From Candidatus Kuenenia stuttgartensis (GTDB lineage Bacteria > Planctomycetota > Planctomycetia > Pirellulales > UBA1268): a DNA stretch of 64,000 bases. Both the position numbers and the translations under genes were made by a program. The stretch lies in assembly GCA_945891385.1 (NCBI GenBank), contig CAMDDJ010000015.1, forward strand, positions 1,237-65,236. The letters are read 5' to 3'. Under the pieces are notes generated by a model. That model saw only the letters and a program-made list of their open reading frames with translations, made no database searches and was not told where the DNA came from. This document shows, in pieces, positions 33,523 through 63,718 of this stretch (position 1 is the first letter of the stretch; each line of letters starts with the position of its first letter).

Positions 33523-33537
33523 GCAAGCGGCGTGCCA
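33523..33537 (-). promoter_or_regulatory. Sigma-54 promoter
   Basis: TGGCAC-GCCGC-TTGC. Confidence 0.8.
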
Positions 33538-33655
33538 AAGGCGTGAGAAACGCTGGGCAACCGAAGGTTCCACCCCGAAAGGGCCTATTCCGCGAGTGAA
33601 ACCGTTTTTTCTTTGCCGCCGTCCACGCCGGCCGTCTGGGCAAACCGAGTCGGGG

Positions 33656-33717
33656 GTGGAGCGATTCGCTCCACTTGGGTGGTCGCTGGCGACCAGGGGT
33701 GGAGCGATTTGCCCCAC
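33656..33717. promoter_or_regulatory. Palindromic boxes GTGGAGCGA-T-TYGCYCCAC (candidate enhancer)
   Basis: Perfect palindrome 33656-33674; second copy 33699-33717; TGGTCGC-TG-GCGACCA between them; same motif at 63561-63622. Confidence 0.65.
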
Positions 33718-33822
33718 CCCACCCCCCCTGGGGAATGATCTGGGGAATCGTCCTTGCACCCGAGGTCGACCGGGTAGACTCCGCATCAGGGCGTGTGAAC
33801 TGGCAACCCGGGAATTCGAGCC

Positions 33823-35085
33823 ATGACGTCAGCGAACCGCAGGGCCTTTCTCAAGACGGCGGCGGCGACGGCGGGGGCCCTATCAGCAGCCCCGTATCTG
33901 ATCACGTCCAAGGCGCTCGGCGTGGGAGAGATTCCGCCGGCCAGCGATCGGATCGTGATGGCCGGAATCGGGCTCGGCAATCAGGGGTCCGGCGATCAGC
34001 GGCGGTTTCTGGACAATCCCGCTGTCCAATACGTGGCCGTCTGCGATGTGCGAACCAAGTGGCGGGACGAGGCTCGCGGCCGGGCCAACGAGCGGTACGG
34101 CAACAAAGATTGCCAGGCTCTGCTCGATTTTCGCGACCTGCTCGCCCGCGACGATATCGACGCGGTTCACATCGCCACACCCGACCATTGGCATTCCATC
34201 ATGACCGTGGCGGCCTGCCGGGCAGGCAAAGACGTCTTTCTCCAGAAGCCCGAGACGCTCACGCTCGCCGAGGGCCCCGTCATGCTGGCAGCAGCCCGCC
34301 GGTATGGAAGGGTGGTTTCGGGGGGCTCGCAACGGGTTCTGGAGGACTATCGCGACCTCGTCGAGCCCGTCTGGGCCGGCGAGCTGGGGCGCATCACCTC
34401 GATCGACATCGATGCCGGTCCATCGTCGATGGAGTGCTACCTCCCCGCCGTCGCTCCGCCCAACGACATCGACTGGGATCTCTGGCTGGGACCCGCCCCG
34501 TGGCAGCCCTACCATCCGGGGCGCTGCGATGGGAATTTCGGCACCGCGGGTAACAGCTGGCGGTCGTATGTCGACTACTCGGGTGGCAGCCTCACCGATT
34601 GGGGCGCGCATAATTTCGGCGGCTGCCTGTTCGCCGCAGGCCTCGGCGACCTGCAGCCTGATCGGGTCGCCTGGCACTCCGATGACCGCGGAGGCGGCTA
34701 CGCAACGCTGCGGTTTCCGAGCGGTGTCGAACTCCACTGCAATCGTCCGGCTGCCCTCCGGCCGCACGACGCCCCGGCGCAGGTGACGCACCAGCGAGGC
34801 ATCACCCTCCGAGGCGACGGCCAAACGGTTCCTCCGCGGGCTGTGCCGGTGTATCGCGGCAGCCGCGGCCTCCACGGCGACTTCGTCGAAGCGGTGAAGT
34901 CGCGGGAACGACCCTTCCGCGATCTCGACATCGCCATCAATACGATGGTCGCAGCCCACCTTCTGGGCATCGTGCGACAGCTGCGGCGGTCGCTCACCTG
35001 GGATCGGTCGCGGCAGCAGTTTCACGACGACCCGACGGCCAATCGCCTGCTCGACCGGGCCCGCCGCGAACCCTGGATGCTCTGA
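33823..35085 (+). CDS. Gfo/Idh/MocA oxidoreductase, Tat-exported
   Basis: NRRAFLK, ATPDHWH, QKP, WDLWLGPAP. Confidence 0.9.
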   Translation: MTSANRRAFLKTAAATAGALSAAPYLITSKALGVGEIPPASDRIVMAGIGLGNQGSGDQRRFLDNPAVQYVAVCDVRTKWRDEARGRANERYGNKDCQALLDFRDLLARDDIDAVHIATPDHWHSIMTVAACRAGKDVFLQKPETLTLAEGPVMLAAARRYGRVVSGGSQRVLEDYRDLVEPVWAGELGRITSIDIDAGPSSMECYLPAVAPPNDIDWDLWLGPAPWQPYHPGRCDGNFGTAGNSWRSYVDYSGGSLTDWGAHNFGGCLFAAGLGDLQPDRVAWHSDDRGGGYATLRFPSGVELHCNRPAALRPHDAPAQVTHQRGITLRGDGQTVPPRAVPVYRGSRGLHGDFVEAVKSRERPFRDLDIAINTMVAAHLLGIVRQLRRSLTWDRSRQQFHDDPTANRLLDRARREPWML

Positions 35086-35103
35086 ACTCGGAGGAATTGC
35101 TCC

Positions 35104-35835
35104 ATGGCTACCGATCCTCTCGACGCCCCTTTCACGGCCCTGGCGACCTTCGACTGGGGAGGCGATCCCACGCCGCTGGCCGACCTCGAGTCGCGGGTGA
35201 GGGAAGCGGCCGCTGCCCCGCCTCTGGCCGGTGAACTCGAGCCGCGGTTCGCCGAACTGCTCACGTCCTCGGCTCCGCTGGCGGCCAAGGCCTTTGCCTG
35301 CCGACAATTGCGTCTGATCGGGACGGCTCGCTCGGTGCCAGCGCTCGCCGGACTGCTGGCCGATCCGGAGTTGTCGCACATGGCCCGCTTCGCCCTTGAA
35401 CGGATCGATGGACCCGAAGCGGGCCAGACGCTCCGCGAGGCGGTTCCCCGCGTGGGAGACGAGCTCGCGCTCGGCATGATTTCGTCGCTCGCGAACCGCA
35501 GGGACGAGGCAGCGGTGCCGCTCCTCGATGCGCTGCTGAGCGGACCGGAGCCGCTCGCGGTCGCAGCCGCGCTCGCGCTCGGGCGGATCGGCACTCCGGC
35601 GGCCGCCAAATCGTTGGCGGCCGCGTCGGCCGCCTCGGCCCGGTACGCCGACGCCTGGGCCACTGCCCGAATCGACTGCGCCGATCAACTTCTTGCCGAC
35701 GGCGACCGGACTGCGGCGACCGCCCTCTACGAGGCTGTTGCCGCGACCACGGGGCCGGCGGCAGCCAACCGGCGCTCGCGTGGCCTACGCATTGCCGCCC
35801 AGACCGGCCTGCTCGACTGCTTGGAGAACGCGTGA
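35104..35835 (+). CDS. HEAT-repeat protein
   Basis: ACRQLRLIG..SVPALA.LL; ALGRIG repeats. Confidence 0.75.
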   Translation: MATDPLDAPFTALATFDWGGDPTPLADLESRVREAAAAPPLAGELEPRFAELLTSSAPLAAKAFACRQLRLIGTARSVPALAGLLADPELSHMARFALERIDGPEAGQTLREAVPRVGDELALGMISSLANRRDEAAVPLLDALLSGPEPLAVAAALALGRIGTPAAAKSLAAASAASARYADAWATARIDCADQLLADGDRTAATALYEAVAATTGPAAANRRSRGLRIAAQTGLLDCLENA

Positions 35836-35898
35836 CGCCGCCGCCGCGGCCTGCTCACCCTGACAGCTCACCCGATTCTTGATGAGGGACGCCGAGGC

Positions 35899-37302
35899 AT
35901 GACAAGGACGACACGCTGTACGAGTCGATCGATATCCGGGGGCGGCCTCGGGCTCGCATGTCTGCTCCTCCCATGTCTGTTCTCGGCTCTGGCGGTGGCG
36001 GCGGAACCCACCGCGTCGGCCCGCCAGGCGGCAGCGACCGTTCTCGAACTCATGGCCACGGGCGACGCCGACCTGGAGGCTGTGGCGCTCGAACGGGTGC
36101 GGTATGGCCTACGAGGCACATGGTTCACCGCTGCGGCCGGTGAATGCCTTCCGAGACTGCCGCCGGCGCGACAAGCCCGGCTCCTCGCGGCCTTGGCTGA
36201 TCGCGGGGATCCCGCGGCGCTGCCCGCGGCCCGATCACTCGCGTCATCCAGCGACGACGACGTTCGGCTCGCGGCTGTGGGCTTCTTCGGCAGGATGGGT
36301 GAGCCCCAAGACCTTCCGTTTCTCCTCGCCGCCCTCGCTCGTGGCGGCCGCGACGCCGCGGTGGCACGGCGAGCGCTCATCGAGTTCCCGGCAGCCGATG
36401 CCGTGCGAGCCGCGGCCACGACCGCCCCCCCTCCCACCCAGGCCGTTCTGATCGAGGTTCTCGCCGATCGCCGGGATCGGAAGGCATTGCCCATTTTCGC
36501 TGCCGCAGCCGATGGGGATCCCTCCGCCCGTCCGGCGGCGGTCGGGGCCTTGGCCCGGTGTGGAACCGCCCGAGAGCTCGACGCCCTCGTCCGGCCCTTT
36601 TTTCAGACCGCCGGCGACGATCGGAAGGCCGCTGAGGCGGCCATCGTCGCGGTCTGCACCACAGGCAGCGACGCGGGCACTGCCGCTGAATCGTTGGTGG
36701 CGGGGTTTGCGAAACTCGATCCCGAAAGGCAGGAAGCGATGCTTCCCGTCCTCGCCCGGGTAGGTGGCCCCGCCGTCATGGCGATTGTCGACGGCCTGGT
36801 GGCCGACCCGACCACGCGTCGGCGGGGGCTCGAGGCCCTCGCTCGGTGGCCCGATGCCACCGTCACGGATCGCCTGCTGGCCATCCACACCGCCACTGAT
36901 GACGCCGACGAGAAGCAGCTCATCCTCAACGCCCTGATCCGGATCGCACCGCTCCCCGACAACAGGCTCGACGACGCCGGCCGGCTCGCACTGCTCGAAA
37001 CGACGCTCGGCCTGTGCGACCGGGCCGACGATCGGGTCCGGGTGATCGAGCGAGCCAATGCGATCCGCACCTACGAAGCGTTTCGCTTCGTCGCCGGCTT
37101 TCTCGACGATCCGACCCTGGCCGATGCGGCCTGCCGGAGCGTGGTCGAGCTCGCGCACCACCGGACGCTTCGCGACGCCCACAAGGCCGAGTTCATGGCC
37201 GCGCTCGACAAGGTGCTTGCCACCTCGAAGAACCCGGAACTGCGTGACCGGGCTACCCGGTATAAGGCAGGCCAGACCTGGGACCGCAAGCAGAAGGGCT
37301 GA
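35899..37302 (+). CDS. Secreted HEAT-repeat protein
   Basis: Hydrophobic N-terminus; repeated LAALADRGD/VRLAA helical units. Confidence 0.72.
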   Translation: MTRTTRCTSRSISGGGLGLACLLLPCLFSALAVAAEPTASARQAAATVLELMATGDADLEAVALERVRYGLRGTWFTAAAGECLPRLPPARQARLLAALADRGDPAALPAARSLASSSDDDVRLAAVGFFGRMGEPQDLPFLLAALARGGRDAAVARRALIEFPAADAVRAAATTAPPPTQAVLIEVLADRRDRKALPIFAAAADGDPSARPAAVGALARCGTARELDALVRPFFQTAGDDRKAAEAAIVAVCTTGSDAGTAAESLVAGFAKLDPERQEAMLPVLARVGGPAVMAIVDGLVADPTTRRRGLEALARWPDATVTDRLLAIHTATDDADEKQLILNALIRIAPLPDNRLDDAGRLALLETTLGLCDRADDRVRVIERANAIRTYEAFRFVAGFLDDPTLADAACRSVVELAHHRTLRDAHKAEFMAALDKVLATSKNPELRDRATRYKAGQTWDRKQKG

Positions 37303-37320
37303 GGGGTGGTACCATGACCG

Positions 37321-39246
37321 GTGGTGTCAGCGACCTTTGCGGGGGATGAATCGATGCACGGTGGTTGGACTGAGGTGGGATCTCGGGCTGTCGCGGTGCA
37401 ACATTCTTGGTTGACGGCCCTGCTCGTGGTAGTCGCGTCGCTACCCTGCCGTGCGGACGAACAGGCGGAACTCCTCGTCCCCAACTGGGTTGAAGATGCG
37501 GTCTTCTACCAGGTGTTTCCTGAGCGGTTTGCCAACGGCGACCCGACGAACGACCCCAGGCGAGACACGCTCGAGTCCGACGTGCCCGAATCGTGGCAGA
37601 TCTCGCCCTGGACGGGCGACTGGTATGCCCGCGCCGAGTGGGAGCGGGAACTTGGCCCTGACTTTTTCGAGCATGGGGTGTTTCACCGCCGCTACGGCGG
37701 CGATCTGCAGGGCGTGATCGACCGGCTCGATTACCTCCAGGATCTGGGCGTCACCGCGCTCTATCTCAATCCGGTCTTCGAGGCCCGCTCCCTGCATAAG
37801 TACGACGGTAACTCCTTCCACCATGTGGATCGGCACTTCGGGCCGGATCCTGCCGGTGACCTGGCTCTGATGGCCGAAGAGACGGCCGACCCGGCGACCT
37901 GGAAGTGGACTGCCGCCGACAAACTCTTCCTCGAACTGTTGCGGGAGGCCCATGCCCGGGGCCTGCGGGTCGTGATCGATGGCGTCTTCAACCACACGGG
38001 CCGCGACTTCTTCGCGTTTGCCGACGTCCGGCGTCTGGGCCGAACATCGCCCTATGCGAACTGGTACACGATCCACGCCGAGGACGACCCCGTCACGCCA
38101 GAAAACGAGTTTCGCTATCAGTGCTGGTGGGGCATCGACACGCTGCCCGAGTTCGCCGATACGCCCGACGGCAAGGATCTCGGGTCCGGCCCGAAGGACT
38201 ACATCATGGCGATCACCCGCCGCTGGATGGATCCCGACGGCGACGGTGATCCGGCGGACGGCATCGACGGCTGGCGGCTGGACGTGGCCCGCGAGGTGCC
38301 GACCGCCTTCTGGCGAGACTGGCATTCCCTCGTGCAGCGGCTCAATCCCGAGGCGTACACCGTGGCCGAAGAGTGGGACGAGGCGAGTGGCTTTCTCAAT
38401 GCGGCCGATTTCGATGCCACGATGAACTACTTCGGGTTCTCCTTTCCCGTCAAGGGTTTTCTCATCGATGGCACGCTGCCCGCTTCCAAGGCCGTGGCCG
38501 CGTTCGAGGAGCGGCTGGCCGCCCATCCCCGCTCCCGGCGGTATGCGATGCTCAACCTGATCGACGGCCACGACACCGATCGGGTCGCCTCGATGATCGT
38601 CAACGCGGCCCGCCGTCCCTACGAGCAGCCGAACCGCTATGACTTCGACATCGCGGTCTCCCCGCGGCATCATGCCGACTACGACCTCCGCCAGCCGAAC
38701 GCCCGCGAGCGAAGAATCCAGCGGATGGTGGCGGTGATGCAGCAGACGTTCGTCGGCGCACCGATGATCTACTACGGCACGGAAACCGGCATGTGGGGGG
38801 CCGACGACCCCTGCGATCGGATGCCGATGGTCTGGCCGGGCATGCGGTTCGAATCGCAGCAGGCCGACCCGCGGGGCCGGGCGCGGGAGCCGCAGCCGGT
38901 CGCATTCGACCAGTCCTTGTTCGCCTTCTATCGGGCGCTGATCGAGCTTCGCCGGCGGCACGCCAGCCTGCGTCGCGGCGAGGTCGAGTTCCTTCCCACC
39001 GACGATGCAGCCGAGTTTCTCGCCTACGCCCGCACGCTCGACGACGAGCGTCTCCTCGTGGGCTTCAATCGCGGCGGCGCCGAGCATGCCTGGCAGGTGC
39101 CGACGCCTGCCGGTGCGAAGGTCGAGCAGCTCGTCACGGCCTCGGGCGATGTGGGCAAGGTGCGGATCGTGCCGCACGGTGACACGGCGACCGTGAGCCT
39201 GCCGCCGCTCGAAGCGGTGGTGCTTCGTGTCACGCGGGCCGAGTGA
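37321..39246 (+). CDS. GH13 alpha-amylase/neopullulanase-like
   Basis: FYQVFPERF, GGDLQG, DGVFNH, DGWRLDVA, EEW, GHD; start uncertain. Confidence 0.92.
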   Translation: MVSATFAGDESMHGGWTEVGSRAVAVQHSWLTALLVVVASLPCRADEQAELLVPNWVEDAVFYQVFPERFANGDPTNDPRRDTLESDVPESWQISPWTGDWYARAEWERELGPDFFEHGVFHRRYGGDLQGVIDRLDYLQDLGVTALYLNPVFEARSLHKYDGNSFHHVDRHFGPDPAGDLALMAEETADPATWKWTAADKLFLELLREAHARGLRVVIDGVFNHTGRDFFAFADVRRLGRTSPYANWYTIHAEDDPVTPENEFRYQCWWGIDTLPEFADTPDGKDLGSGPKDYIMAITRRWMDPDGDGDPADGIDGWRLDVAREVPTAFWRDWHSLVQRLNPEAYTVAEEWDEASGFLNAADFDATMNYFGFSFPVKGFLIDGTLPASKAVAAFEERLAAHPRSRRYAMLNLIDGHDTDRVASMIVNAARRPYEQPNRYDFDIAVSPRHHADYDLRQPNARERRIQRMVAVMQQTFVGAPMIYYGTETGMWGADDPCDRMPMVWPGMRFESQQADPRGRAREPQPVAFDQSLFAFYRALIELRRRHASLRRGEVEFLPTDDAAEFLAYARTLDDERLLVGFNRGGAEHAWQVPTPAGAKVEQLVTASGDVGKVRIVPHGDTATVSLPPLEAVVLRVTRAE

Positions 39247-39262
39247 CGGCGGGGGACGGCAG

Positions 39263-41548
39263 ATGGCCGCGTTGCTCGCTCGCGCTTCGGTTCTCACGGC
39301 CCTTCTGGTGGTCGGCTTCGGCTGCAGCGGCGGCGACAGCCGCACGACCATCACGATCTGGCACCAGTCACGGCCCAACGAGCGGGAGTTTCTTGCGGAC
39401 GAGATCGCCCGGTTCGAGAACCAGAATCCCGGGGTGCGAGTCCGGCCGCTCTACAAGGAGACCGAAGAGCTCCGCAGCGGCTTCCAGGCCGCGGCCCTGA
39501 CCGGTGCCGGCCCGGAGCTCGTCTACGGTCCGTCCGACGTGCTCGACACCTTCCACACGATGGGTCTGATCCAAGACCTGGGAAGGTGGCTTCCGCCGGA
39601 CGAGCGGGCGGACTTCGTGGCCGGCTCCCTCACGAGCCTGCCCGCTCGCGACGATCCCGCCCGCGAGGAACTCGTGCAGATCGGCGACCGGTTCGGGAAT
39701 CATCTCGCCCTGGTCTACAACCGGCGGCTGCTGCCATCCCCGCCCGAGACGACCGACGAACTCATCCGCCTTGCCCTCGAGCAAACGGTCGATCAGGACG
39801 GCGACGGCCGAATCGATCGCTACGGCCTGGTCTGGAACTACACGGAGCCATTCTTCGCCATCCCGTTCATCACCGGCTTCGGGGGCTGGGTCTTCCAAGA
39901 AGGTGAGTCTCGATCCTCAGTGCCGGAGTCTCGATCTCCAAAGCCCGCCCTCGACACACCGGCCATGCGGGAGGCGCTCGGCTTCATCCGCGATCTCCGG
40001 GAGGTGCACGGTGTCTCGCCGGCCAACTGCGACTACGAGTTGGCCGACTCGCTCTTCAAGTCGGGTCGGGCGGCGATGATCGTCAACGGCGATTGGAGTT
40101 GGTCCGACTATCTGGCCGAGCCGGAGCTCGATGCCGCCGTCGCGGTGCTGCCGGTGGTGTCATCGACGGGCCAGCCGATGCGGCCGATGATCGCTCCGAA
40201 GGGATATTCGCTCAACGTCAACGCCGCGGGGCCGGCGGCGGACGCCGCCATGGCGTTCGTCCGACACATGACGGCAGCCGACACCCAGCGTCGGCTCGTG
40301 GAGCGGCTCCGGATGCTGCCCGTCCGCCGCAGCATCCAAGCCGACCCGCTGTTTCAGTCCGATCCAACGCTCGCCGCCTCCCAGCGGCAGCTGGAGAACG
40401 GCCGGCTGATGCCGGTCGTTACGGAGCTGCGAGCCATCTGGGATGGCATGCGGCCGGGCTATCAGGCGGTGCTCGGGGGCAGCCTCACGCCCGCCGCCGC
40501 GGCCGGGCGGATGCAGGCAGACGCCGAAGGGTTCATCGCCACGATGCACCGGCGGATCGAGCCCAGTCCGGCTGCGACGTGGCTGCCGGCCGTCGCAGGA
40601 CTCGGTTTGCTCGGTCTGCTCGTCTGGCAGCTGCCGGCGTGCGCTCGCCTCCTGGCCGATCTGCGGGCGAACCCGACCGCCTACCTCTTCGCCTTTCCGG
40701 CCGTAGCCATGATTTTCGCAGTGATCGTATTTCCCTTCGTCTGGAACATCGTGCTCTCGCTTTCCGACATGTCGCTGACCAGGTTTCGTGACTGGCGGAT
40801 CGTCGGCTTTCAGAACTACGCCGAGGTGCTCACCGACCCACGGCTCTGGGGACTCAGCGGGGTATTTCTCAAGACGATCCTCTGGACGGTCGTCAACGTG
40901 ACGCTCCATGTCGCGATCGGTGTGATGCTCGCTGTGACGCTCAACGGGCCTGTGCGGGGCAAGTCGATCTACCGCCTGCTCCTGATCATTCCCTGGGCCG
41001 TGCCCGCGTACATCACAGCCCTCACCTGGCGGGGCATGTTTGACTATGAGTACGGCGCCATCAATCTCGTGCTCGGTCGGTGGCTCGGGCTCGCGCCGGT
41101 CAATTGGCTGGGCGAGCCGCTGCGGGCCTTCGAGGCCTGCGTGATCACAAACGTCTGGCTCGGATTTCCCTTCATGATGGTGATCGCCCTGGGTGGGCTT
41201 CAGGGAATTCCCCAGGAACTCTATGAGGCGGCTCGGATCGACCGGGCTGGCCGGTGGCAGCAGTTCTGGCACATCACGCTTCCGCTGCTCAAGCCCGTCC
41301 TGCTCCCGGCCGCCACGCTCGGAGCGATCTGGACCTTCAACAACCTAAACGTCATCTGGCTGGTCTCAAACGGCGGCGAGCCACAAGACTCCACCCACAT
41401 TCTGGTCTCCTACGTTTACAAGTCGGTCTTCAATCTCTACCGCTACGGCTACGGCGCAGCCCTCTCGATGGTGATGTTCCTGATCCTGCTCGGGGCCTCC
41501 CTGGCGTTGTTGCGGCGGGGCAAGGCCACGGAAAACGTCTACGGCTGA
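39263..41548 (+). CDS. Fused maltodextrin solute-binding lipoprotein + MalF-type ABC permease
   Basis: FGC lipobox, SBP domain (ALVYN, AMIVNGDW), then TM region with ELYEAARIDRA. Confidence 0.87.
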   Translation: MAALLARASVLTALLVVGFGCSGGDSRTTITIWHQSRPNEREFLADEIARFENQNPGVRVRPLYKETEELRSGFQAAALTGAGPELVYGPSDVLDTFHTMGLIQDLGRWLPPDERADFVAGSLTSLPARDDPAREELVQIGDRFGNHLALVYNRRLLPSPPETTDELIRLALEQTVDQDGDGRIDRYGLVWNYTEPFFAIPFITGFGGWVFQEGESRSSVPESRSPKPALDTPAMREALGFIRDLREVHGVSPANCDYELADSLFKSGRAAMIVNGDWSWSDYLAEPELDAAVAVLPVVSSTGQPMRPMIAPKGYSLNVNAAGPAADAAMAFVRHMTAADTQRRLVERLRMLPVRRSIQADPLFQSDPTLAASQRQLENGRLMPVVTELRAIWDGMRPGYQAVLGGSLTPAAAAGRMQADAEGFIATMHRRIEPSPAATWLPAVAGLGLLGLLVWQLPACARLLADLRANPTAYLFAFPAVAMIFAVIVFPFVWNIVLSLSDMSLTRFRDWRIVGFQNYAEVLTDPRLWGLSGVFLKTILWTVVNVTLHVAIGVMLAVTLNGPVRGKSIYRLLLIIPWAVPAYITALTWRGMFDYEYGAINLVLGRWLGLAPVNWLGEPLRAFEACVITNVWLGFPFMMVIALGGLQGIPQELYEAARIDRAGRWQQFWHITLPLLKPVLLPAATLGAIWTFNNLNVIWLVSNGGEPQDSTHILVSYVYKSVFNLYRYGYGAALSMVMFLILLGASLALLRRGKATENVYG

Positions 41549-41559
41549 CGGATTGCGCT

Positions 41560-42390
41560 ATGAAAGAACCCATCCGCATCACGCTCCTGCGGCACGCCGT
41601 GCTGCTTGTGTTTGTGGCAGTCGCGATCTACCCGGTGCTCAACGTGGTGTCGATCTCGCTCCGTCCTGGAGACCGGCTCCGCTCCACCGACCTCGCGGTC
41701 ATTCCCACCGACTGGACCCTCGCAAGCTACGTGAAGCTCTTCACGGAGCAGCCTTTTCTCCGTTGGCTGGGCAACTCCCTCGTGGTGTCGGCCGGAGTGA
41801 CCCTCACCGGCGTGACGCTCGCTTCGACGGCCGGCTACGCCTTCAGCCGGTTTCACTTCGTGGGCCGCAAGGCCACGATGCTCGCGATTCTCACGACTCA
41901 GATGTTTCCCGCCACCATGCTCCTACTGCCGCTGTATGTCTTGATCGCGGCCCTCGGGCTGATCGACACCTGGCTCGGCCTCATGGTCTTCTACACGGCA
42001 ACCGCCCTGCCGTTCTGCGTCTGGCAGATGAAGGGCTTCTACGACACGATCTCGCCGTCGCTCGAGGAGGCCGCCCGGATCGACGGCTGCAGCCGGTTTC
42101 AGGCCTTCTGGCATGTGGTCCTGCCGCTCGCCACCCCGGGGCTCGTCATCACGGCGTTATTCAGCTTCATGACCGCCTGGAGCGAATACATCGTGGCGGC
42201 CCAGGTGATGCAGGATGAGCGGATGTTCACGCTGCCCCTGGGCATCAAGGGCTTTCAGGCCACGCTCTCCTCGCAGTGGGGCCTGTACGCGGCCGCGTCG
42301 ATCCTCGTGAGCCTGCCGGTGGTGGTCGTGTTCCTCGCGCTCTCCCGCTATCTCGTCAACGGGCTGACCGTCGGCTCGGTCAAGGAGTGA
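41560..42390 (+). CDS. Sugar ABC permease (MalG-like)
   Basis: TQMFP, LEEAARIDG, TLPLG. Confidence 0.9.
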   Translation: MKEPIRITLLRHAVLLVFVAVAIYPVLNVVSISLRPGDRLRSTDLAVIPTDWTLASYVKLFTEQPFLRWLGNSLVVSAGVTLTGVTLASTAGYAFSRFHFVGRKATMLAILTTQMFPATMLLLPLYVLIAALGLIDTWLGLMVFYTATALPFCVWQMKGFYDTISPSLEEAARIDGCSRFQAFWHVVLPLATPGLVITALFSFMTAWSEYIVAAQVMQDERMFTLPLGIKGFQATLSSQWGLYAAASILVSLPVVVVFLALSRYLVNGLTVGSVKE

Positions 42391-55382: not shown

Positions 55383-55457
55383 GGGTGCAACCTCAAAAAT
55401 GTGTTGGGTTTGAGTTGTGGGATCGAACAACAGTGGGAAACCCCTGGGGAATCAAAA

Positions 55458-55472
55458 GCAAACCGTGTGCCA
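55458..55472 (-). promoter_or_regulatory. Sigma-54 promoter
   Basis: TGGCAC-ACGGT-TTGC. Confidence 0.8.
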
Positions 55473-55583: not shown

Positions 55584-55665
55584 TTCACTTTCTCGGTGAA
55601 ATCCTGGCGGGCGGATGCCGGCTCTTTCCCAAAAACCGGGTAATCACCTTCACAGAGAAGGTGAA
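55584..55665. promoter_or_regulatory. Two TTCAC-N7-GTGAA palindromes (candidate enhancer)
   Basis: 55584-55600 and 55649-55665. Confidence 0.6.
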
Positions 55666-55823
55666 AGAAACTCGGCCAGGGGAACGCGGTCGGCTCGACC
55701 TGGGCGGCGTTCCTCGCGAAGGCGGCTCCGCAGGCGGCAGGGCAGTTTGCCCCCGAGGAGGTGACGAGGTCAGACTGACGGTATGCGGGGGGAAGATTTG
55801 TGATCCGGATAAGGAATATCGCC

Positions 55824-56855
55824 ATGAACCAAGGTCATCCCAGCCTGGCGTGTCGTGTCCCGCTCGCGGGCAAATCCCTACAAGCGTCCTCCGGCCGCGA
55901 TGGTTTCACACTCGTCGAGTTGTTGGTGGTGATCGCGATCATCGCCACGCTCATCGGCTTGTTGCTGCCAGCCGTGCAGAGCGCTCGGGAGTCCGCCCGC
56001 CGCACCTCGTGCAGCAACAAACTCCGGCAGCTCTCACTTGGCACGTTGACCTACGAGAGCGCGAAGAAGAAGTTTCCCCAGAGCCGGCCGCCCTGGGCCG
56101 AGCCAGCGGGCGGCCCTGGCGCCTGCGACCGAACGAGCACCTGCACCGGCCGGGGCTGGATCCTCGAGACGTTGCCCTTTATCGAGGAGGGCTCGCTCTA
56201 CGAATCCTTCGCTCCATCGCTCAAGGGCAATGACTACGACCGCGGCGGGCTCAAGGTGGCCGCGGTGCGGTCGCTCCTCAAAGCGCCGCTCGCGATGCTG
56301 GCCTGTCCCAGCGACCCCGATGCAGCCATCCCGAGCATGGAGATGTTCAACTGGCGAAACATCCCGGTGACTGTTACCAGCTACAAGGGTGTACTCGGCG
56401 CGACCAAAGTCGGGGGAAGTTACGGCAGCATCTGGCCGCGGCATGACGACGAGCCCGGAGCGGCCGTCGACTGCCACAACAACACCCGTCAGTTGCCCTG
56501 CAAGGGGATCTTCTGGCGGCATACCTACATCTACCCGGTCCGGCTCTCGAGCATCGCCGACGGCACGAGCAAGACCTTTCTGATGGGCGAGTCGGTCGCC
56601 AAGCACGACTGGCACTCGGCGGCCTTCTACGCCGACGGCGACTGGGCGAGCTGCAACCTGCCGCTCAACTACCTACCGACGCCGCCTCAGCCCCAGAATT
56701 GGTGGAACGTGCGCGGATTTCGCAGCCTCCACCAGGGCGGAGCCCACTTTGCCCGGGCCGACGGCTCGGTGTCGTTCGTCAACGAAACGATCGACATGAC
56801 TCCCTACATGGCCATGGCGACCCGCAATCGGGGTGACGTCGCCGACACACCCTGA
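55824..56855 (+). CDS. DUF1559 prepilin-type / H-X9-DG protein
   Basis: [27 protein letters not shown]. Confidence 0.92.
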   Translation: MNQGHPSLACRVPLAGKSLQASSGRDGFTLVELLVVIAIIATLIGLLLPAVQSARESARRTSCSNKLRQLSLGTLTYESAKKKFPQSRPPWAEPAGGPGACDRTSTCTGRGWILETLPFIEEGSLYESFAPSLKGNDYDRGGLKVAAVRSLLKAPLAMLACPSDPDAAIPSMEMFNWRNIPVTVTSYKGVLGATKVGGSYGSIWPRHDDEPGAAVDCHNNTRQLPCKGIFWRHTYIYPVRLSSIADGTSKTFLMGESVAKHDWHSAAFYADGDWASCNLPLNYLPTPPQPQNWWNVRGFRSLHQGGAHFARADGSVSFVNETIDMTPYMAMATRNRGDVADTP

Positions 56856-56942
56856 CGTTCGCCCTGAACGCTCCCTCACTGCTTGGAGCGAGCCCTTGGG
56901 CTCGGATGTTCGATGCTTCGACCTGTCCTGGTTCTCTCCTCG

Positions 56943-57431
56943 ATGCCGATTGGGTGCCACTCGTGCTGCCTCGCTTCCAGCAGTCTCGCACTGGTCGTCC
57001 TGACGACGATTCTCGCTGCAAGCGGATGCAGCCGTCATCCGTCCAAGCTCACGGGAGAGGTGGTGCTCGACGGCAAGCCACTCACGACCGGCGTCATCAT
57101 GCTCTCCCCGGCTCGCACTGGGCCCTCTGCTTATGCCGAGATCAGGCCAGACGGCAGTTACGAACTCAAGACGGGTTCCGAGAAGGGGCTCGAACCCGGC
57201 GAATACGTGGTGACGGTTGCCGCCAACGCACCCGGCCCCGACCAGCCCGAGTCAGAGAACGGTGCCGCGCCCGCGATCCGGCCGCTGATGACGCCGCCAC
57301 AATATGCGGATGTCAGCACCTCGCCGCTGCGGATCACCGTGAAGCCCGGCAGTCAGAAGTGGACGATCGACTTAAAGACGGAGGCCGACGCGGCTCCCGA
57401 GCCGTCTCCGTCGGCAGGCGAAGCCGAGTGA
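56943..57431 (+). CDS. Lipoprotein, carboxypeptidase-regulatory-like domain (DUF1559 partner)
   Basis: ASGC lipobox; LTGEVVLDGKPL; PGEYVVTV; start uncertain. Confidence 0.78.
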   Translation: MPIGCHSCCLASSSLALVVLTTILAASGCSRHPSKLTGEVVLDGKPLTTGVIMLSPARTGPSAYAEIRPDGSYELKTGSEKGLEPGEYVVTVAANAPGPDQPESENGAAPAIRPLMTPPQYADVSTSPLRITVKPGSQKWTIDLKTEADAAPEPSPSAGEAE

Positions 57432-57595
57432 GCCCACGACCGCGGCAGCCCGGCGGCGAAAGAGCCGCCCCGTCCGGCGGAGACGGCCGCGGATTGCGGT
57501 GAGAATGTGGCGGGGGCTATGTTCCCTCGACCGTCCGATCGGCCTCCGGGGAACCGCCCCCGGCACCGTCGCGACTCCCGCCAGGTACGAAACTC

Positions 57596-58771
57596 TTGAA
57601 TTCCGACCGCACGACGCTGCTCACTGGGGCCACCGGACTGCTCGGCTCCTATCTGCTTCGCGACCTTCTCTTCGCGGAGCGGTCGGTCGCGGTGATCGCC
57701 CGGCCCACCCGTCGAGCGTCGGCCCATGAGCGGATTGAGACGCTCGTTCGCGGCTGGGAGTCGTCGCTCGGAATCGGCCTGCCACGACCGGTCGTGCTCG
57801 TCGGCGACCTCGACCGCCCCCTGTGCGGACTGGGCGGTGCCGATCTCGGCTGGGTGCGAGAGCACTGTGAGCAGATCGTGAACAATGCCGCCAGCCTGAC
57901 GTTTCGGGGCGTCGACCGCGATGCCGAACCGTGGAAGACGAACGTCGGCGGCACGGTCACCATGCTCGCGCTGGCCGAGGCGGCAGGAATCCGGCATGTC
58001 CATCATGTCTCGACCGCCTACGTGGCGGGCCTCCGCACCGGCATTGTTTTGGAGGACGACGGAAACGTCGGCCAAGAATTCGGCAACGACTACGAGGCCA
58101 GCAAGGCCGAGGCTGAGCTCCTGGTACGGGCCGCTCCGCACCTCGACACGGCGACGATCTACCGTCCTTCGATCATCGTAGGTGATTCTGCCACCGGGTA
58201 TACCTCGACCTACCACGGCTACTACGCGGCCCTGCGGCTTGGTCACACGCTGCTGACCCGCGTCTCACTGGGGTCGACCAGCGGCCGGGCGCTGCTCACC
58301 CTCCTCGGGATCGATGCCGACTCCCGCAAGAACTTCGTGCCCGTGGACTGGGTCTCCGCCGTGATCGCCCGGGGCATCGCCAGCCACTCGGCCCGAGGAC
58401 GCACCTACCACCTCACGCATCCCGAGCCGCTGGCGATGGAGTTCGTGGCGGAGGTGATCCAGGAGGCCGTGGAGTCCTATTCGGTGGCCGCGGCACCAGA
58501 TGCTCCGGACCTCTGTGATGAGCAGTGGTTTGCCGATCACCTGCGAGTGCAACTCGATCTCTACCAGCGGTACTTTCGCACCGACCCCAGCTTCGATCAC
58601 CCCAACACTTCCACGATCGCGGCCGACCTGCCCTGCCCTGCCCTTGACCGAGACACCCTGCTACGGATGTCGAAATACGCGATCCAGCACAACTTCGGCT
58701 GGTTTCCCCCAGATGCCGTGGTCACCGAACTGCCTCGGGCATCCAGCCGCCGAGGAACGCTCGCACACTGA
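57596..58771 (+). CDS. Extended SDR, fatty acyl-CoA/thioester reductase-like
   Basis: LLTGATGLLG, HVSTAYV, YEASK, RPSII, VPVD. Confidence 0.85.
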   Translation: MNSDRTTLLTGATGLLGSYLLRDLLFAERSVAVIARPTRRASAHERIETLVRGWESSLGIGLPRPVVLVGDLDRPLCGLGGADLGWVREHCEQIVNNAASLTFRGVDRDAEPWKTNVGGTVTMLALAEAAGIRHVHHVSTAYVAGLRTGIVLEDDGNVGQEFGNDYEASKAEAELLVRAAPHLDTATIYRPSIIVGDSATGYTSTYHGYYAALRLGHTLLTRVSLGSTSGRALLTLLGIDADSRKNFVPVDWVSAVIARGIASHSARGRTYHLTHPEPLAMEFVAEVIQEAVESYSVAAAPDAPDLCDEQWFADHLRVQLDLYQRYFRTDPSFDHPNTSTIAADLPCPALDRDTLLRMSKYAIQHNFGWFPPDAVVTELPRASSRRGTLAH

Positions 58772-58815
58772 ACGCACCGGGCCAGGCAGACTCGAGTCGC
58801 GGAGCTTCGGGCAGC

Positions 58816-59052
58816 TCAGCCGGCCATGGATCGGCGGCCGCTGCCACCGGTCGTCGGGCCGCGGGTGGCCTCGCCGATCAGCGTGCGGAGAATCTTGCGG
58901 GCGAGATTGGCTCCTCCGACGATACGCCCCTCGGTGTAGTCGTCGAGACCGTAGCCGGGACCCTGCTCGCGGGCCCGCTGCTCCTGCACCGCCTGCTGGC
59001 ACAGGCGTGCGATCTCATTGAGCTTGTCGTGGTCAAGGTTGTGGCGGGGCAT
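58816..59052 (-). CDS. Hypothetical protein
   Basis: Protein-like ORF MPRHNLDHDKLNEIARLC..., GC-rich third positions, GAGG upstream. Confidence 0.55.
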   Translation of the reverse strand: MPRHNLDHDKLNEIARLCQQAVQEQRAREQGPGYGLDDYTEGRIVGGANLARKILRTLIGEATRGPTTGGSGRRSMAG

Positions 59053-59280
59053 TGGACTGCAAGAGGCGCGGGTAGCCATAACAACGGCTCGAAACGATCA
59101 TGAACTTCATGTGAGGAAGTTTAGGCCGCATAACCGGCCCGGCCAGAGCCCTGTGACATTGCTGATCGCCCGGGGTCTCGCCATCGCGTACTGTTCGCTT
59201 GTGGAAACGCGGGCCACAAGGCTATCTTTTCCACAGGTTCGGCAGGGATGCCGACCGGCCGCAGCTGCCAGGAGGTCCGC

Positions 59281-60612
59281 ATGTCGGAAGCCCGCCCCAA
59301 GCTGTTCGTGCTCGACACGAACGTGATCCTGCACGACAGCGGCTGCATTCGGAATTTCGAGGAAAACGACATCGCGATCCCGATCACGGTGCTCGAGGAA
59401 CTCGACCAATTCAAGCGGGGCAACGAAGACATCCACTTCCAGGCGCGGGAGTTTCTGCGGCGGATCGATGCCCTCACCGGCGACGTGCTCTCCGCGGCAG
59501 GCAGCCCCCTCGGCCCGGGGCTCGGATCGATCCGCGTGGTGCTCGGCGGGTCTGCCCGCGATCTGCTCCACGAGTCGTTTCTGCAAGACACGCCCGACCA
59601 CCGGATTCTGCGGACCACGCTCGCGCTCCAGCAGGAACTCGCCCCGCGGGCGGTGATTCTCGTCTCCAAAGACACGAACTTGCGGATGAAGGCCAAGTCG
59701 CTCGGCCTTCGCGCCCAGGACTACACCTCCGACAAGGTGCAGGGCATCGAGAAGCTCTACACGGGCAGGCGCACGGTCGAAGGCATCGCATCGGAGGTTA
59801 TTGACGAGTTCTACGCGAGCGGCGGCGTGCTGTCGGCCGACAGACTGTCGCTCGAGCCTCCGCCGCTTCCCAACGAGAACTTCGTGCTCCGCAACGGCAG
59901 CAAGTCAGCCCTGGCCACCTTCCGGCGTGCGGACGGCTCCTTTCACCGCATCGAGAAGCAGACCTGCTACGGGATCACGCCCCGCAATGCCGAGCAGTCA
60001 TTCGCCCTCAAGGCCCTGATGGACGACGACATCAAGCTCGTCACGCTCTCGGGCACGGCCGGAACCGGCAAGACACTCCTCGCGCTCGCTGCGGCCCTCG
60101 AGCGGCGGCAGCAGTACCGTCAGATCCTGCTCGCACGTCCCGTGGTGCCGCTCTCCAACCGCGACCTTGGCTTTCTGCCGGGCGACATCACCGACAAACT
60201 CGACCCCTACATGCAGCCGCTGTACGACAACCTGACGGTGATTCGGCACCAGTGCGGCGAGGAGACGCAGGCCGCGAAGCGGATCGTCGAAATGCGGGAG
60301 TCGGAGAAGCTGATGATCACCCCCCTCGCCTACATCCGCGGCCGCAGCCTGCAACGGATGTTCTTCATCGTGGACGAGGCCCAGAATCTCACGCCCCACG
60401 AGGTCAAGACGATCATCACCAGGGCCGGTGAGGGAACGAAGATCGTGTTCACCGGCGACGTGGCCCAGATCGACCAGCCCTACCTCGACGCGCTCTCCAA
60501 CGGCCTCTCCTACCTGATTCACAGGATGATGGGACAGCCGATCTACGCGCACATCACGCTCGAGAAAGGTGAGCGGTCGGCCCTGGCCGATCTGGCCAGC
60601 GAGTTGCTCTAG
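59281..60612 (+). CDS. PIN domain-PhoH family ATPase
   Basis: [30 protein letters not shown]; GGAGG RBS. Confidence 0.93.
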
Positions 60613-60720
60613 ACGTTGATGAAACGTGTGAACGGCTGCGCTACACTGTGCCGGCCGGGAACACGCGGTAGAAACTGCCTGTGTCGATCATTCCTTTCCG
60701 CAACGTCGGATGCCGTGCCC

Positions 60721-61275
60721 ATGAACGTCGACACTCATCACGACTCGCTCCTGCGAGCGGCAATCCAGGATCGTCCGACCGTCACTGCAGCCGGCCAGCC
60801 CATGCGGCGGCTCACTGACGGTGTCAGGATCCGCCCCCTCCCCACCCATTTCGACCAGCGGGGATCCGTAACGGAACTCTACGACCCTCGCTGGAACTTC
60901 CACCCGGACCCCCTGGTGTTCGCCTATTGCTTCACGATCCGCCCAGGGTTCGTCAAGGGCTGGAATCTCCACCAGCGGCACGAGGATCGGTATGCGCTCA
61001 TCAAGGGAGAGCTGGAACTCGTGCTGTACGACTCTCGGGAGGGGAGCCCGACCTACAAGGAGATCTGCGTGATCCGAGTCTCGGAGAGCAGCCGTGTCTT
61101 AGTGACGGTGCCGATCAACGTCTGGCATGCAGACTTCAACGTCGGCTCCGAGGACCTGATCGTGGCGAACTTTCCCACCACTCCCTACGACCATGCCGAT
61201 CCCGACAAGTGGCGGCTGCCCATCGATACCCCGCTCATACCGTATTCGTTTCCCCCGGGTGTGCGGGGCGGATGA
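60721..61275 (+). CDS. dTDP-4-dehydrorhamnose 3,5-epimerase-like cupin
   Basis: DQRG, KGWNLH, LYDSR..SPT, VWH. Confidence 0.8.
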   Translation: MNVDTHHDSLLRAAIQDRPTVTAAGQPMRRLTDGVRIRPLPTHFDQRGSVTELYDPRWNFHPDPLVFAYCFTIRPGFVKGWNLHQRHEDRYALIKGELELVLYDSREGSPTYKEICVIRVSESSRVLVTVPINVWHADFNVGSEDLIVANFPTTPYDHADPDKWRLPIDTPLIPYSFPPGVRGG

Positions 61276-62159
61276 CCGTCACGCGGCCGAAGTTTTCGAT
61301 TCTCCTGCCGACGCATAATCGGTGCGACGTGCTGGGGCTTTCGATCGACTCGGTCCTGCGGCAGACCGAGACCGACTTCGAGCTCCTCATCGTCGCAGAC
61401 GGGTGCACCGATGACACCCTGGCAGTCGTTGCCGGGCGTGCCGATCCGCGGATTCGCCTGTTCGACCTGCCGAAGGCGGCGGGCTTCGGCTATGCGAACC
61501 GCAACCTCGCCCTCCGGGAGGCCCGGGGCCATTATGTGGCCTTCGCAGCCCACGACGACCTTTGGTTTCCTGATCACCTCGCCGTCCTCGGTGGAACCCT
61601 TGACCGCACGGGTGCTGAGTGGGGCTACAGCCAGCCACTCTGGGTTTCGACTGATGGGTATGTCCTCCCATACTTCACGAATCTGGGGCTCGCCGACGAG
61701 TTTCAGCTCTTCATGACCAACTCCAACACGATCCCGGCGCAGTGCGTGGTACACACCCGGCGGCTGCTGGAGCAGGTGGGGTATTGGCCGGAGGACGTTG
61801 CCGAGGCGGCCGATTGGCGGCTGTGGCAGCGGATGCTCAGGGCTTCCGCAGGCAAGGCCGTGTTTGTGCCGGTGGCCACCGGGCTCCATTTTTCGGCCCG
61901 CTGGCGGGAGTCCCGCGTGTCAGGAAGCGCTGACGGACAGGTTCTCGTCGCGGTCGCGGAGCGGGCTGCCTGGTGGCCGCAGGCTTTGAAACTGCACCTC
62001 GCCGGACACCAGACTGAGCAGTCGGCCGCCTGGGCGGTCTTGGTGGGCGAGGCCGACTGGGTTTCGGCGGTGCGTTTGGCTGTCTCCACCGTTGCCGGTC
62101 GGATCGCCTGGATGGCGGTGAGAAACCTGCTGCCGCAGGCGGTTGCCGCGCAGGGCTGA
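61272..62159 (+). CDS. GT2 glycosyltransferase
   Basis: FSILLPTHN, DGCTD, AHDD. Confidence 0.85.
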   Translation: MTVTRPKFSILLPTHNRCDVLGLSIDSVLRQTETDFELLIVADGCTDDTLAVVAGRADPRIRLFDLPKAAGFGYANRNLALREARGHYVAFAAHDDLWFPDHLAVLGGTLDRTGAEWGYSQPLWVSTDGYVLPYFTNLGLADEFQLFMTNSNTIPAQCVVHTRRLLEQVGYWPEDVAEAADWRLWQRMLRASAGKAVFVPVATGLHFSARWRESRVSGSADGQVLVAVAERAAWWPQALKLHLAGHQTEQSAAWAVLVGEADWVSAVRLAVSTVAGRIAWMAVRNLLPQAVAAQG

Positions 62160-62164
62160 CCTTC

Positions 62165-63316
62165 TCAGCGTAGGAGGGCATCAACGAGTACGGCGGCCCG
62201 ATGGACATCGTTGATGCCTAGGGCCGCGCCGTCGAAGGCAAGGAACACCCCGCCATCCTCGAGAACCTCGACTCCCGTGAGTTTCCGGTGTTCGCCGCTG
62301 AACCGCGGCGGCACGACGAACTGTCCGCCGTCGAGCCCATAGCGGTCGACGAGCCGCTGCGCGTCGGCTACGAGGTCGTCGTATCGCGCCGGATCTTCGT
62401 TGAGCTCCCCGAGAATGCCGTGCACGACGTCCGCCACATGAATCGGCTTGGTTGCAAGCTCCGCAAACTGACGGGTGGCCCGGAGCCGCACCGACGCGAG
62501 ATGGATCGCAAGGGCCGTCGAGTCGCCCAGTTCAGGTTCGGCAAGGGGGCGCCGCATGCCCCGGAGAAAATCCTCGGAAAGCTGCCGGCCGGCCTGCTTG
62601 CTGCGGAACGAAACACCGGAACTCGAGGCGGAGAGCCCTCGGATCGAGAGGGGCCGCTCGACCAGCACAGCCGACGTCGCCATGATGCCGGTGACGATCC
62701 CCGAGGAGACGTCTGCCACCTCGTCGCAGAAGTAGCTACCGGTCCGATGTCTGACCCGCTCGAGCAGGCTCCGAGCGACGAACCCGTTGTAGATCGAGGG
62801 AAGCCGCTCGAATAGCCACAGGTTTCGCGGTTCATCGAAGAAGCGGTCGACATACTCCCTGGCGTTGACCCTCCTCGCCGTCTTCGGATTGGCACGGACA
62901 TAGACCATCTGCCGCTTGTGCGGTAGCAACGCATCGGGCCACCAGTAGATGTGCGGAAACCAGAAGAACACCTCGGGCTGGGCGGAGGCCAGAAGGGTTC
63001 GGGCTACCTCGAGGGCATTCCGGCACAGTCCGTCGTCGTCACCGAGGATCGAGACATAGCGGCCGCGGCTGGCAGTCACGCAGTGTTCGAAATTGCCTCG
63101 CAGCCCCAATCTCTGCGGCGTGCGGAGGTAGCGCAGGCGGCCAGGCTGGCCCAGCCGCTCGACGACCGCCCTGATTCCGGGTGGGCCATGGTCGTCTGAG
63201 ACCAGGATCTCGAAGTCGTCCCCCGGCTGCTCCAGAACCGTGCGCAGGCTGGCCTCGAGGGCTTCCGGGTTGCGATAGGCGGGGATGCAGACGGAGAACT
63301 GTGGGATCACGGGCAA
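62165..63316 (-). CDS. GT2 glycosyltransferase
   Basis: FSVCIPAY, VSDD, LGDDD. Confidence 0.85.
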   Translation of the reverse strand: MPVIPQFSVCIPAYRNPEALEASLRTVLEQPGDDFEILVSDDHGPPGIRAVVERLGQPGRLRYLRTPQRLGLRGNFEHCVTASRGRYVSILGDDDGLCRNALEVARTLLASAQPEVFFWFPHIYWWPDALLPHKRQMVYVRANPKTARRVNAREYVDRFFDEPRNLWLFERLPSIYNGFVARSLLERVRHRTGSYFCDEVADVSSGIVTGIMATSAVLVERPLSIRGLSASSSGVSFRSKQAGRQLSEDFLRGMRRPLAEPELGDSTALAIHLASVRLRATRQFAELATKPIHVADVVHGILGELNEDPARYDDLVADAQRLVDRYGLDGGQFVVPPRFSGEHRKLTGVEVLEDGGVFLAFDGAALGINDVHRAAVLVDALLR

Positions 63317-63557
63317 CCCTCACACCCTTTCGAGGATGCCGATTGGTGCAGCGCGAGTCGCACCGGCCTGCCGACCACACGCTCGCGAGCATCAACGGGC
63401 CGACACGGCGGGAGCCAAACTGCCGCCAGGCACAGCCCGCCAGAATACCGGGCAGACAAGTGGCCGCCAGCCGCGGATGAGGAGCAGAACAGTTTCCGGG
63501 CACAGGCCAGTTGCCGTGCCTACGCGGGAAACCGCAAGTTTGGCCGCCCCGACGCAA

Positions 63558-63622
63558 TGGGTGGAGCGATTTGCCCCGTGGGTGGAGCGATTTGCCCCAG
63601 TGGGTGGAGCGATTTGCCCCAC
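63558..63622. repeat. Three identical 20-bp units TGGGTGGAGCGATTTGCCCC (candidate enhancer array)
   Basis: 63558-63577, 63579-63598, 63601-63620; periods of 21 and 22 bp. Confidence 0.85.
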
Positions 63623-63703
63623 GTGCCCATGGCCCGTGCGGCTGTTTAGGGCCGAAATGGTCATTTGGTGCACGAAACCGCTGATTGGTGCATGAGCCCC
63701 ACG

Positions 63704-63718
63704 CGGCACGAGAGTTGC
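63704..63718 (+). promoter_or_regulatory. Sigma-54 promoter
   Basis: CGGCAC-GAGAG-TTGC, 60 bp upstream of the ATG at 63778. Confidence 0.7.

Follow-up and report, generated by a model that had tools for sequence, protein, structure and literature searches.

What activates two sigma-54-type promoters that lie 30 kb apart in one planctomycete contig and carry the same palindrome upstream? Both promoters belong to a stretch of 64,000 nucleotides filed under Candidatus Kuenenia stuttgartensis (contig CAMDDJ010000015.1; C15:1237-65236 of the genome analyzed), which we call the window; the assembly that contains it, hereafter G000, comprises 3.77 Mb in 150 contigs, with 67.6% G+C and 93.9% completeness. 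The palindrome, termed box A, spans 17 bp and has the core TGGAGCGAWTCGCTCCA. Judged by comparison of sequences, box A very probably serves as an upstream activator sequence at which a bacterial enhancer-binding protein (bEBP) acts in a sigma-54 enhancer-box regulon.

A preliminary description of this DNA had reported box A copies at both loci, a middle palindrome and an A/T tract at the first locus, and the two promoters, and all of these were recovered from the sequence at the same positions (Table 1). The box centers lie at -172 and -129 (first locus) and at -135, -114 and -92 (second locus) from the GG of the -24 element, and the 43-bp separation of the outer boxes at both loci was correct on re-measurement. 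Searching both strands of the window with the 19-mer form of the box and up to three mismatches returned seven matches compared with 0.05 expected, and none of 100 shuffles reached seven.

To place these boxes in a genomic context, we scanned both strands of the genome for promoters of the TGGCAC-N5-TTGC type, with GG and GC fixed and at least 9 of 11 consensus positions matched, which yielded 377 promoter-like sites. The 17-mer core matched the genome 15 times with up to two mismatches, and 14 of these matches fell within sigma-54 promoter regions, in seven clusters on C1, C13, C15 (two), C24, C55 and C123. The remaining match is a lone site on C18 (C18:30027), and an additional lone site with three mismatches, C2:38790, lies inside an open frame of 5724 codons. 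Because neither has a promoter, both were discounted and are treated here as non-functional or chance occurrences. A promoter-like site was present 80-250 bp downstream of seven of the nine box loci, compared with 1.66% of 200,000 random positions (binomial P ~1.2e-11), and at the promoter-linked loci the boxes were always on the upstream side. Viewed in reverse, 8 of the 377 promoter-like sites carry a box (up to four mismatches) at -50 to -260, namely the seven box-locus promoters and C7:68318, which has one degenerate box at -116; these eight promoters match 9-11 of the 11 consensus positions. The preliminary description had considered that copies might prove unlinked to sigma-54 promoters, for instance by lying at gene 3' ends; they lie instead upstream of GG-N10-GC elements and not at 3' ends.

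The spacing of the boxes is also constrained. Over the eight promoters, boxes occur in groups of one to three at offsets of -92 to -173. Neighboring boxes in G000 are separated by 20-24 or 43 bp (seven spacings), and 34 loci from relatives give separations of 22-23, 31-34 or 42-45 bp, which corresponds to two, three or four helical turns; no spacing of 25-30 or 35-41 bp was observed in either set. The arrangement therefore has the geometry of a bEBP enhancer, in which at least two dyads lie ~80-200 bp upstream with whole-turn phasing. At the promoters of an operon type encoding a micropeptide and a receiver-like protein (the receiver operon), two boxes lie 42-45 bp apart in the species compared, with a conserved CTGGTCGC-YRG-GCGACCAG palindrome midway. 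Exact copies of this middle palindrome occur in two places in the genome, at C1:33564 and in the window, both at receiver-operon promoters and both flanked by box A copies. The A/T tract of the first locus has a counterpart at the same place in relatives, a T-tract of TTTTTTCAG type, and could act as a DNA-bending site.

Extending the scan to relatives, as proposed in the preliminary description, revealed that the arrangement of box and promoter is conserved across the genus. With up to one mismatch, box A was present in 65 of 68 genus genomes (29 of the 30 high-quality ones) at 1-34 sites each, and the reversed control gave no site in any of the 68. Among 16 genomes of other families of the order, a single site was found, in one genome. 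The sister genus, represented by G139, carries box A, and G166 (95% complete) does not. A promoter lies 95-242 bp downstream of 19 of 20 multi-box loci, one of which is G000's own, and a receiver-like protein is encoded downstream in 12 of the 19 loci from relatives. Similarly, among 12 loci of named metagenome-assembled genomes (MAGs; their labels are Pirellulales, Planctomycetaceae or Planctomycetota), 10 have box and promoter in front of the gene, and the upstream DNA of the remaining two is shorter than 400 bp.

The predicted regulon comprises about eight promoters, of which five or six would serve genes for PEP-CTERM surface proteins (three FGE-like, one S8 protease) and three would serve receiver-like paralogs (Table 1). 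PEP-CTERM tails (PF07589/TIGR02595) were detected on the C24, C55, C13 and C123 products, on the C1 S8 peptidase and on the C7 product. Genome-wide there are at least 56 PEP-CTERM matches and one exosortase gene (C4:90389-91135). At the second window locus, the secreted FGE-domain protein of the preliminary description is encoded by a gene that the contig end truncates, and its N-terminus matches two box-regulated proteins that combine an FGE domain with a PEP-CTERM tail. The best-conserved target is the operon that runs from the micropeptide through, in some copies, a 158-aa open reading frame (ORF) to the receiver-like protein; the 158-aa ORF of the C1-type operon had no family match.

Table 1. 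Positions of box A elements, promoters and target genes. Plain numbers refer to the window; a C number denotes a contig of G000.
Feature	Position	Strand	Remarks
Box A copy TGGAGCGATTCGCTCCA (19-mer form GTGGAGCGATTCGCTCCAC, 33656-33674)	33657-33673		Perfect palindrome; center -129 from GG of promoter 33522-33537
Box A copy TGGAGCGATTTGCCCCA (19-mer form GTGGAGCGATTTGCCCCAC, 33699-33717)	33700-33716		2 mismatches; center -172
Middle palindrome TGGTCGCTGGCGACCA (TGGTCGC-TG-GCGACCA)	33680-33695		~2 helical turns from either flanking box
A/T tract	33598-33614		Between first-locus boxes and promoter; host genome 67.6% G+C
Sigma-54-type promoter TGGCACGCCGCTTGCT	33522-33537	-	10/11 consensus positions
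Micropeptide ORF, 34 aa MRFSHGDSGWDLTQGDLLLCSLPIALFLSIVSLV	33249-33350	-	First operon gene; hydrophobic C-terminus; AAGGAG in front
Pseudo-receiver, 167 aa	32630-33130	-	(beta-alpha)5 receiver fold; insert at residues 97-117
Box A copy	63562-63578		3 mismatches; center -135 from GG of promoter 63704
Box A copy	63583-63599		2 mismatches; center -114 from GG of promoter 63704
Box A copy	63605-63621		2 mismatches; center -92 from GG of promoter 63704
Sigma-54-type promoter CGGCACGAGAGTTGCG	63704-63719	+	9/11 consensus positions
Secreted-protein gene, 5' part	63778-64000	+	ATG at 63778; cut by end of window and contig; N-terminus 50-58% identical to C13 and C55 proteins
Target: micropeptide + receiver-like protein	33350-32630	-	Window
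Target: FGE-sulfatase domain + PEP-CTERM tail	C13		
Target: FGE-sulfatase domain + PEP-CTERM tail	C55		
Target: PEP-CTERM protein	C24		PF07589, 30 bits
Target: protein with VPEP-TM-RR tail	C123		Followed by extracytoplasmic function (ECF) sigma factor
Target: micropeptide, 158-aa ORF, receiver-like protein	C1		Followed by 609-aa S8 peptidase with PEP-CTERM tail
Target: 118-aa PEP-CTERM protein	C7:68318-69420		11/11 promoter, one degenerate box A; followed by distant receiver-like paralog ending in membrane helix
Box B copies	55584-55600, 55649-55665		Promoter 55457-55472 (-)

A pseudo-receiver/micropeptide unit had been proposed for the first locus, and both of its parts hold: a conserved 34-aa ORF preceded by AAGGAG is followed by a receiver-fold protein with non-canonical signature residues. 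We aligned the leader of the window with those of the two closest species. Across these three species the flanks have diverged, and the boxes, the middle palindrome and the TTTGGCACG...TGC promoter core are invariant; within the micropeptide ORF, nucleotide differences are synonymous and indels are multiples of three. Of 42 loci searched, 27, among them the C1 paralog of the same genome, encode micropeptide homologues (E<1e-4), which end in ...LLCxLPIxLFLSIVSLV; the product is a putative membrane peptide. In the C1-type operon we also observed an extra box A at +48/+49 (C1:33363-33379), between the promoter and the micropeptide ORF, and this +48 position is kept in at least three loci of relatives. 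The extra box could serve as an operator, as a roadblock or as part of an RNA hairpin. An Rfam scan of the window returned only a tRNA at gathering score and no known RNA family in the leaders; the tRNA gene lies at 21778-21864 (-).

The 167-aa protein of the window had no match in Pfam, and its C1 paralog scored 22.8 bits on PF00072, below the cut-off of 30.2. Its AlphaFold2 model is a (beta-alpha)5 structure with a disordered insert (predicted local distance difference test score, pLDDT, 68.2; predicted template modeling score, pTM, 0.66; one of five models confident), and the best Foldseek matches of that model are CheY-like receivers, such as 3crn_B (E 3.3e-7). Five of ten orthologs have D as the acidic residue that closes beta-3 and the other five have E, and R or G takes the place of the conserved Lys. 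The protein has the predicted fold of PF00072 and falls short of both its Pfam cut-off and its conserved Asp and Lys. Because of the sub-threshold score and the non-canonical acid and Lys, we use the name pseudo-receiver; these residues fit a protein that would not be phosphorylated. Its nearest Atlas clusters consist of unnamed Planctomycetota proteins.

Given a conserved enhancer-like box, we asked which bEBP might act on it. The genome encodes a single RpoN (PF04552, 209 bits) and nine bEBPs that match PF00158 strongly. Phylogenetic profiling reduced these nine to three candidates, the C31-type (C31:14432-15550), the C2-type (C2:103591-104658) and the C34-type (C34:8886-10295), each of which consists of an AAA+ domain and a helix-turn-helix (HTH) only, with no receiver or regulatory domain. 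The pseudo-receiver is present in 61 of 68 genus genomes (29 of 30 high-quality), the C31-type bEBP in 60 of 68 (29 of 30) and the C2-type bEBP in 60 of 68 (27 of 30). In the three genus genomes without box A (G002, G018 and G065), the pseudo-receiver, the C31-type and the C2-type are missing too; in the two searched in greater depth, G002 and G018, box-like matches are scattered and weak, and the seven bEBPs encoded by each include no ortholog of the G000 C31-, C2- or C34-types. Outside the genus, G139 combines box A and the pseudo-receiver with a C31-type (76% identity) and a C2-type (75%), and none of these four features was found in G166. Elsewhere in the order, only homologues of the C31-type with ~52% identity were found.

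These distributions suggest that the activator is most likely one of the three family-restricted bEBPs. The C31-type, whose GSFTGA loop and HTH are unchanged in 21 of 21 orthologs, ranks slightly ahead, and the C34-type is heterogeneous. The HTH is conserved in both the C31-type and the C2-type, and we name no single activator because neither profiling nor HTH conservation separates these two. The proposal in the preliminary description that one activator co-regulates the two loci is supported by the sequence comparisons, with the nine bEBPs of the genome narrowed to three candidates. No bEBP gene adjoins a box or a receiver-like gene in the contigs compared.

The C31-type gene is divergent from a chemosensory-like cluster (gene and cluster together at C31:4779-15550) encoding, by Pfam, Peripla_BP_5, dCache-HAMP-MCP, CheW and CheR-TPR proteins; on inspection of ORF sequences alone, the cluster continues with a CheA-like protein with a receiver and then CheB. 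A TPR protein is encoded downstream at this locus, with two PEP-CTERM genes nearby, and the order of bEBP, periplasmic binding protein (PBP) and methyl-accepting chemotaxis protein (MCP) is retained in G004 and G021. The C34-type gene (C34:8886-10295) is directly downstream of a PEP-CTERM gene (C34:7443-8420; TIGR02595, 28.7 bits).

How might box A work? In the mechanism that we infer, for the binding and looping steps as for the acting bEBP and its signal, bEBP dimers would occupy boxes that share one helical face and lie 90-175 bp upstream of the promoter, two or three boxes in G000 and as many as five in relatives. The bound dimers would then assemble into an active AAA+ ring, which an A/T-rich bend would loop to the sigma-54 holoenzyme at the -24/-12 element, and ATP hydrolysis would open the promoter. 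A more elaborate version, which is possible but which we consider doubtful, is a self-contained, family-restricted signaling module with a split activator: one or two domainless bEBPs would bind box A and the middle palindrome and be controlled in trans by the pseudo-receiver and the micropeptide, giving feedback that gates exosortase-sorted surface display. The C31-type, beside its Che-like cluster, might in that case act with the C2-type as a hetero-oligomer. Complex prediction for the C31-type bEBP and the pseudo-receiver gave a score of 0.59, compared with 0.00 for the best of three controls, which we grade as weak support; runs agreed in at least 68% of contacts, with a partner pLDDT of at least 65. 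Among solved complexes, 58 of 80 attained the mark set for this score, as against 2 of 110 mismatched pairs. Only 7 of the 80 solved complexes scored 0.60 or less, as did both passing mismatches, and the pass may simply reflect resemblance to solved NtrC-type receiver-AAA+ structures.

Several observations weigh against the view that box A is a bEBP enhancer. The promoter calls depend on a simple consensus score. Simple activation does not explain the conserved +48 box of the C1-type operon. Box A is found at only ~5-6 of the PEP-CTERM genes, and it therefore governs a subset of them and is not 'the' PEP-CTERM regulator. The phyletic pattern amounts to about two loss or gain events, one in the G002/G018/G065 group and one in G166, so that the three bEBPs are inseparable and a fourth, co-travelling factor is possible. 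Within G000, no bEBP gene adjoins box A and no autoregulation was seen. Finally, at the thresholds used, five box-bearing genomes have no C2-type match and five have no C31-type match. All five of the latter and three of the former are less than 90% complete; G058 (90%) and G023 (95%) also lack the C2-type.

With these points in mind, we considered what else box A could be. It might be the operator of a conventional, non-AAA+ factor, either a repressor or an architectural protein, with the true enhancer elsewhere, for example in the middle palindrome. Such a role would suit the box at +48, a typical operator position, as well as the second, different palindrome that stands between the boxes at receiver-operon promoters, and the binder of box A is so far represented by candidates only. 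However, at five of the eight promoters, two or three phased copies of box A are the sole repeats between -90 and -175; the two receiver-operon promoters add the middle palindrome, which is thus found at only two of the eight, and the C7 promoter has its single degenerate box. This is the geometry of a classical bEBP enhancer, and the phyletic pattern likewise points to bEBPs among the genes compared. We regard a conventional operator as unlikely.

It is less probable still that the regulon is a diverged but ordinary member of the PrsK/PrsR/PrsT system (Haft 2006), even though the logic is the same, with PEP-CTERM genes behind a sigma-54 promoter and a 17-nt upstream motif (PMC1569441). The best of the nine bEBPs scored 366 bits on the PrsR profile TIGR02915, whose cut-off is 502.6, and the best PrsK match (TIGR02916) reached 97.3 bits against a cut-off of 300; with both profile scores below their cut-offs, membership in PrsR/PrsK was rejected. 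Moreover, the candidate bEBPs have no receiver domain, box A does not contain the TTTACA with which motif 1 ends according to the paper's text, and its motifs are described there as confined to Proteobacteria (PMC1569441). We give least credence of all to the idea that the boxes lack a regulatory role and are either copies of a REP-like (repetitive extragenic palindromic), mobile or selfish repeat or G+C-rich palindromes that arose by chance. The shortness and the G+C-rich composition of the palindrome, in a genome of 67.6% G+C, invite this explanation, as do the two single copies without a promoter, one of them inside the 5724-codon frame. Against it stand the low copy number (the 15 matches with up to two mismatches) and the location of 14 of these in sigma-54 promoter regions, the empty reversed control in all 68 genomes, and the conservation of position, phasing and orthologous placement across species while the flanks diverge. 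Many copies, placement at 3' ends and independence of promoters, the marks of REP elements, were not found, and an origin as a REP element or by chance was rejected. An enhancer box bound by a bEBP thus remains the reading that we favor.

Other sigma-54-type sites were noted in the same genome. A second palindrome, box B (TTCAC-N7-GTGAA), has 16 exact matches in the genome and none in the reversed control; a sigma-54-like promoter follows 10 of the 16 at a distance of 100-190 bp, and for 11 of the 16 a PEP-CTERM tail is encoded within 3 kb. In addition to the two copies in the window (Table 1), box B occurs on C10, C24, C44, C62, C65 and C94, and it looks like the mark of a separate bEBP regulon that serves a different set of PEP-CTERM genes. 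Each of five further genomes of the genus has two to seven scattered single sites, which are uninformative about the activator. At C70:7670-7990, three tandem units of ~60 bp, each with TTGGCACGCTGCG, precede a sigma-54-like promoter and then an ORF starting VAKQMVFDDEAR, which we take to resemble GroEL. An identical sigma-54-like promoter, TGGCACGGGGCGTGCA, is found at C16:62259 (+) and C34:143 (-) with at least 120 identical bases downstream; one copy is at a contig end, just after a PEP-CTERM tail, and the shared stretch may be a repeated element or an assembly overlap. Within the window, an 11/11 promoter, TGGCACGGTCTTTGCA at 27063-27078 (-), lies just upstream of dnaK (25018-26952, -) and clpB (22280-24919, -) and has neither box A nor box B. 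It fits the report in PMC12316311 that chaperone genes are overrepresented among the sigma-54 targets predicted for Planctomycetia.

What does box A add to our understanding of gene regulation in this phylum? Almost nothing is known about how genes are regulated in Planctomycetota, and members of the present lineage are uncultured. As predicted here, the box A regulon is small and restricted to a lineage of uncultured freshwater planctomycetes, and it follows the same logic as the proteobacterial kind with a different motif and different candidate activators. A sharply defined box with ~8 targets per genome in 65 of 68 genus genomes makes for a concrete and testable regulon. Its targets are surface proteins of the exopolysaccharide-associated PEP-CTERM class, which probably influence how cells attach and aggregate in lakes. 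For the question of how a signal could reach enhancer-binding proteins that have no sensor of their own, the three domainless bEBPs and the micropeptide/pseudo-receiver operon together offer a tractable case.

In the literature we found no description of the box A system, and PMC1569441, in its available text, was the only source found to tie PEP-CTERM genes to sigma-54; the accessible part of the 2025 survey of sigma-54 regulons (PMC12316311) does not mention PEP-CTERM or exosortase. The preliminary description had called the regulon undescribed. This holds for the motif, the lineage and the activator but not for the principle, since sigma-54 control of PEP-CTERM genes is known from Proteobacteria (PMC1569441). 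There, as far as the available text goes, a 17-nt motif ending in TTTACA and then a sigma-54 motif precede 99 of 167 proteobacterial PEP-CTERM genes, with motif 1 ~63 nt upstream of the sigma-54 motif; PrsK, PrsR and PrsT were found by phylogenetic profiling; and only Proteobacteria share these motifs, other motifs and regulators being predicted elsewhere (PMC1569441). The same text describes mostly single-gene units with long leaders and a motif predicted to bind the bEBP that profiling had identified. Box A and box B, two motifs in one planctomycete without PrsR or PrsK, bear on the gap that this left. Common to both systems is a sigma-54 promoter in front of PEP-CTERM genes, in a genome that encodes an exosortase, together with a 17-nt element farther upstream that sometimes occurs in more than one copy. 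They differ in that box A belongs to Planctomycetota and is a perfect dyad, TGGAGCGAWTCGCTCCA, that does not correspond to motif 1 with its TTTACA end; in that orthologs of PrsR and PrsK are missing and the candidate activators lack a receiver; and in that box A covers a subset of the PEP-CTERM genes, includes a micropeptide/pseudo-receiver operon and is accompanied by a second box type.

Three better-studied arrangements bear on how such a regulon could be controlled. In NtrC enhancers such as that of glnAp2, tandem dyads lie 100-150 bp upstream on one face of the helix, and an AAA+ ring contacts the promoter by looping that is often aided by a bend. Box A likewise consists of multiple phased upstream dyads, for which we propose oligomerization and looping, but its sequence is unrelated and the candidate activators have no phospho-receiver domain. 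In Myxococcus xanthus, the chemosensory-like Che3-CrdA pathway controls a sigma-54 activator. The C31-type bEBP resembles this case in being divergent from a PBP/MCP/CheW/CheR cluster, with the bEBP-PBP-MCP synteny in two other species; unlike CrdA, it has no receiver to accept phosphate, and its link to box A is one of three possibilities. The PspF/PspA and HrpR-HrpS/HrpV systems use domainless bEBPs with trans-acting regulators encoded in their own regulons. Unlike PspA and HrpV, the putative modulator here would be a pseudo-receiver together with a membrane micropeptide, whose interaction the in silico complex weakly supports. As with PspF and HrpR-HrpS, however, the candidate activators consist of AAA+ and HTH only and two or three paralogs co-occur, and the best-conserved target has the look of a small regulatory operon, one whose products could feed back on its activator.

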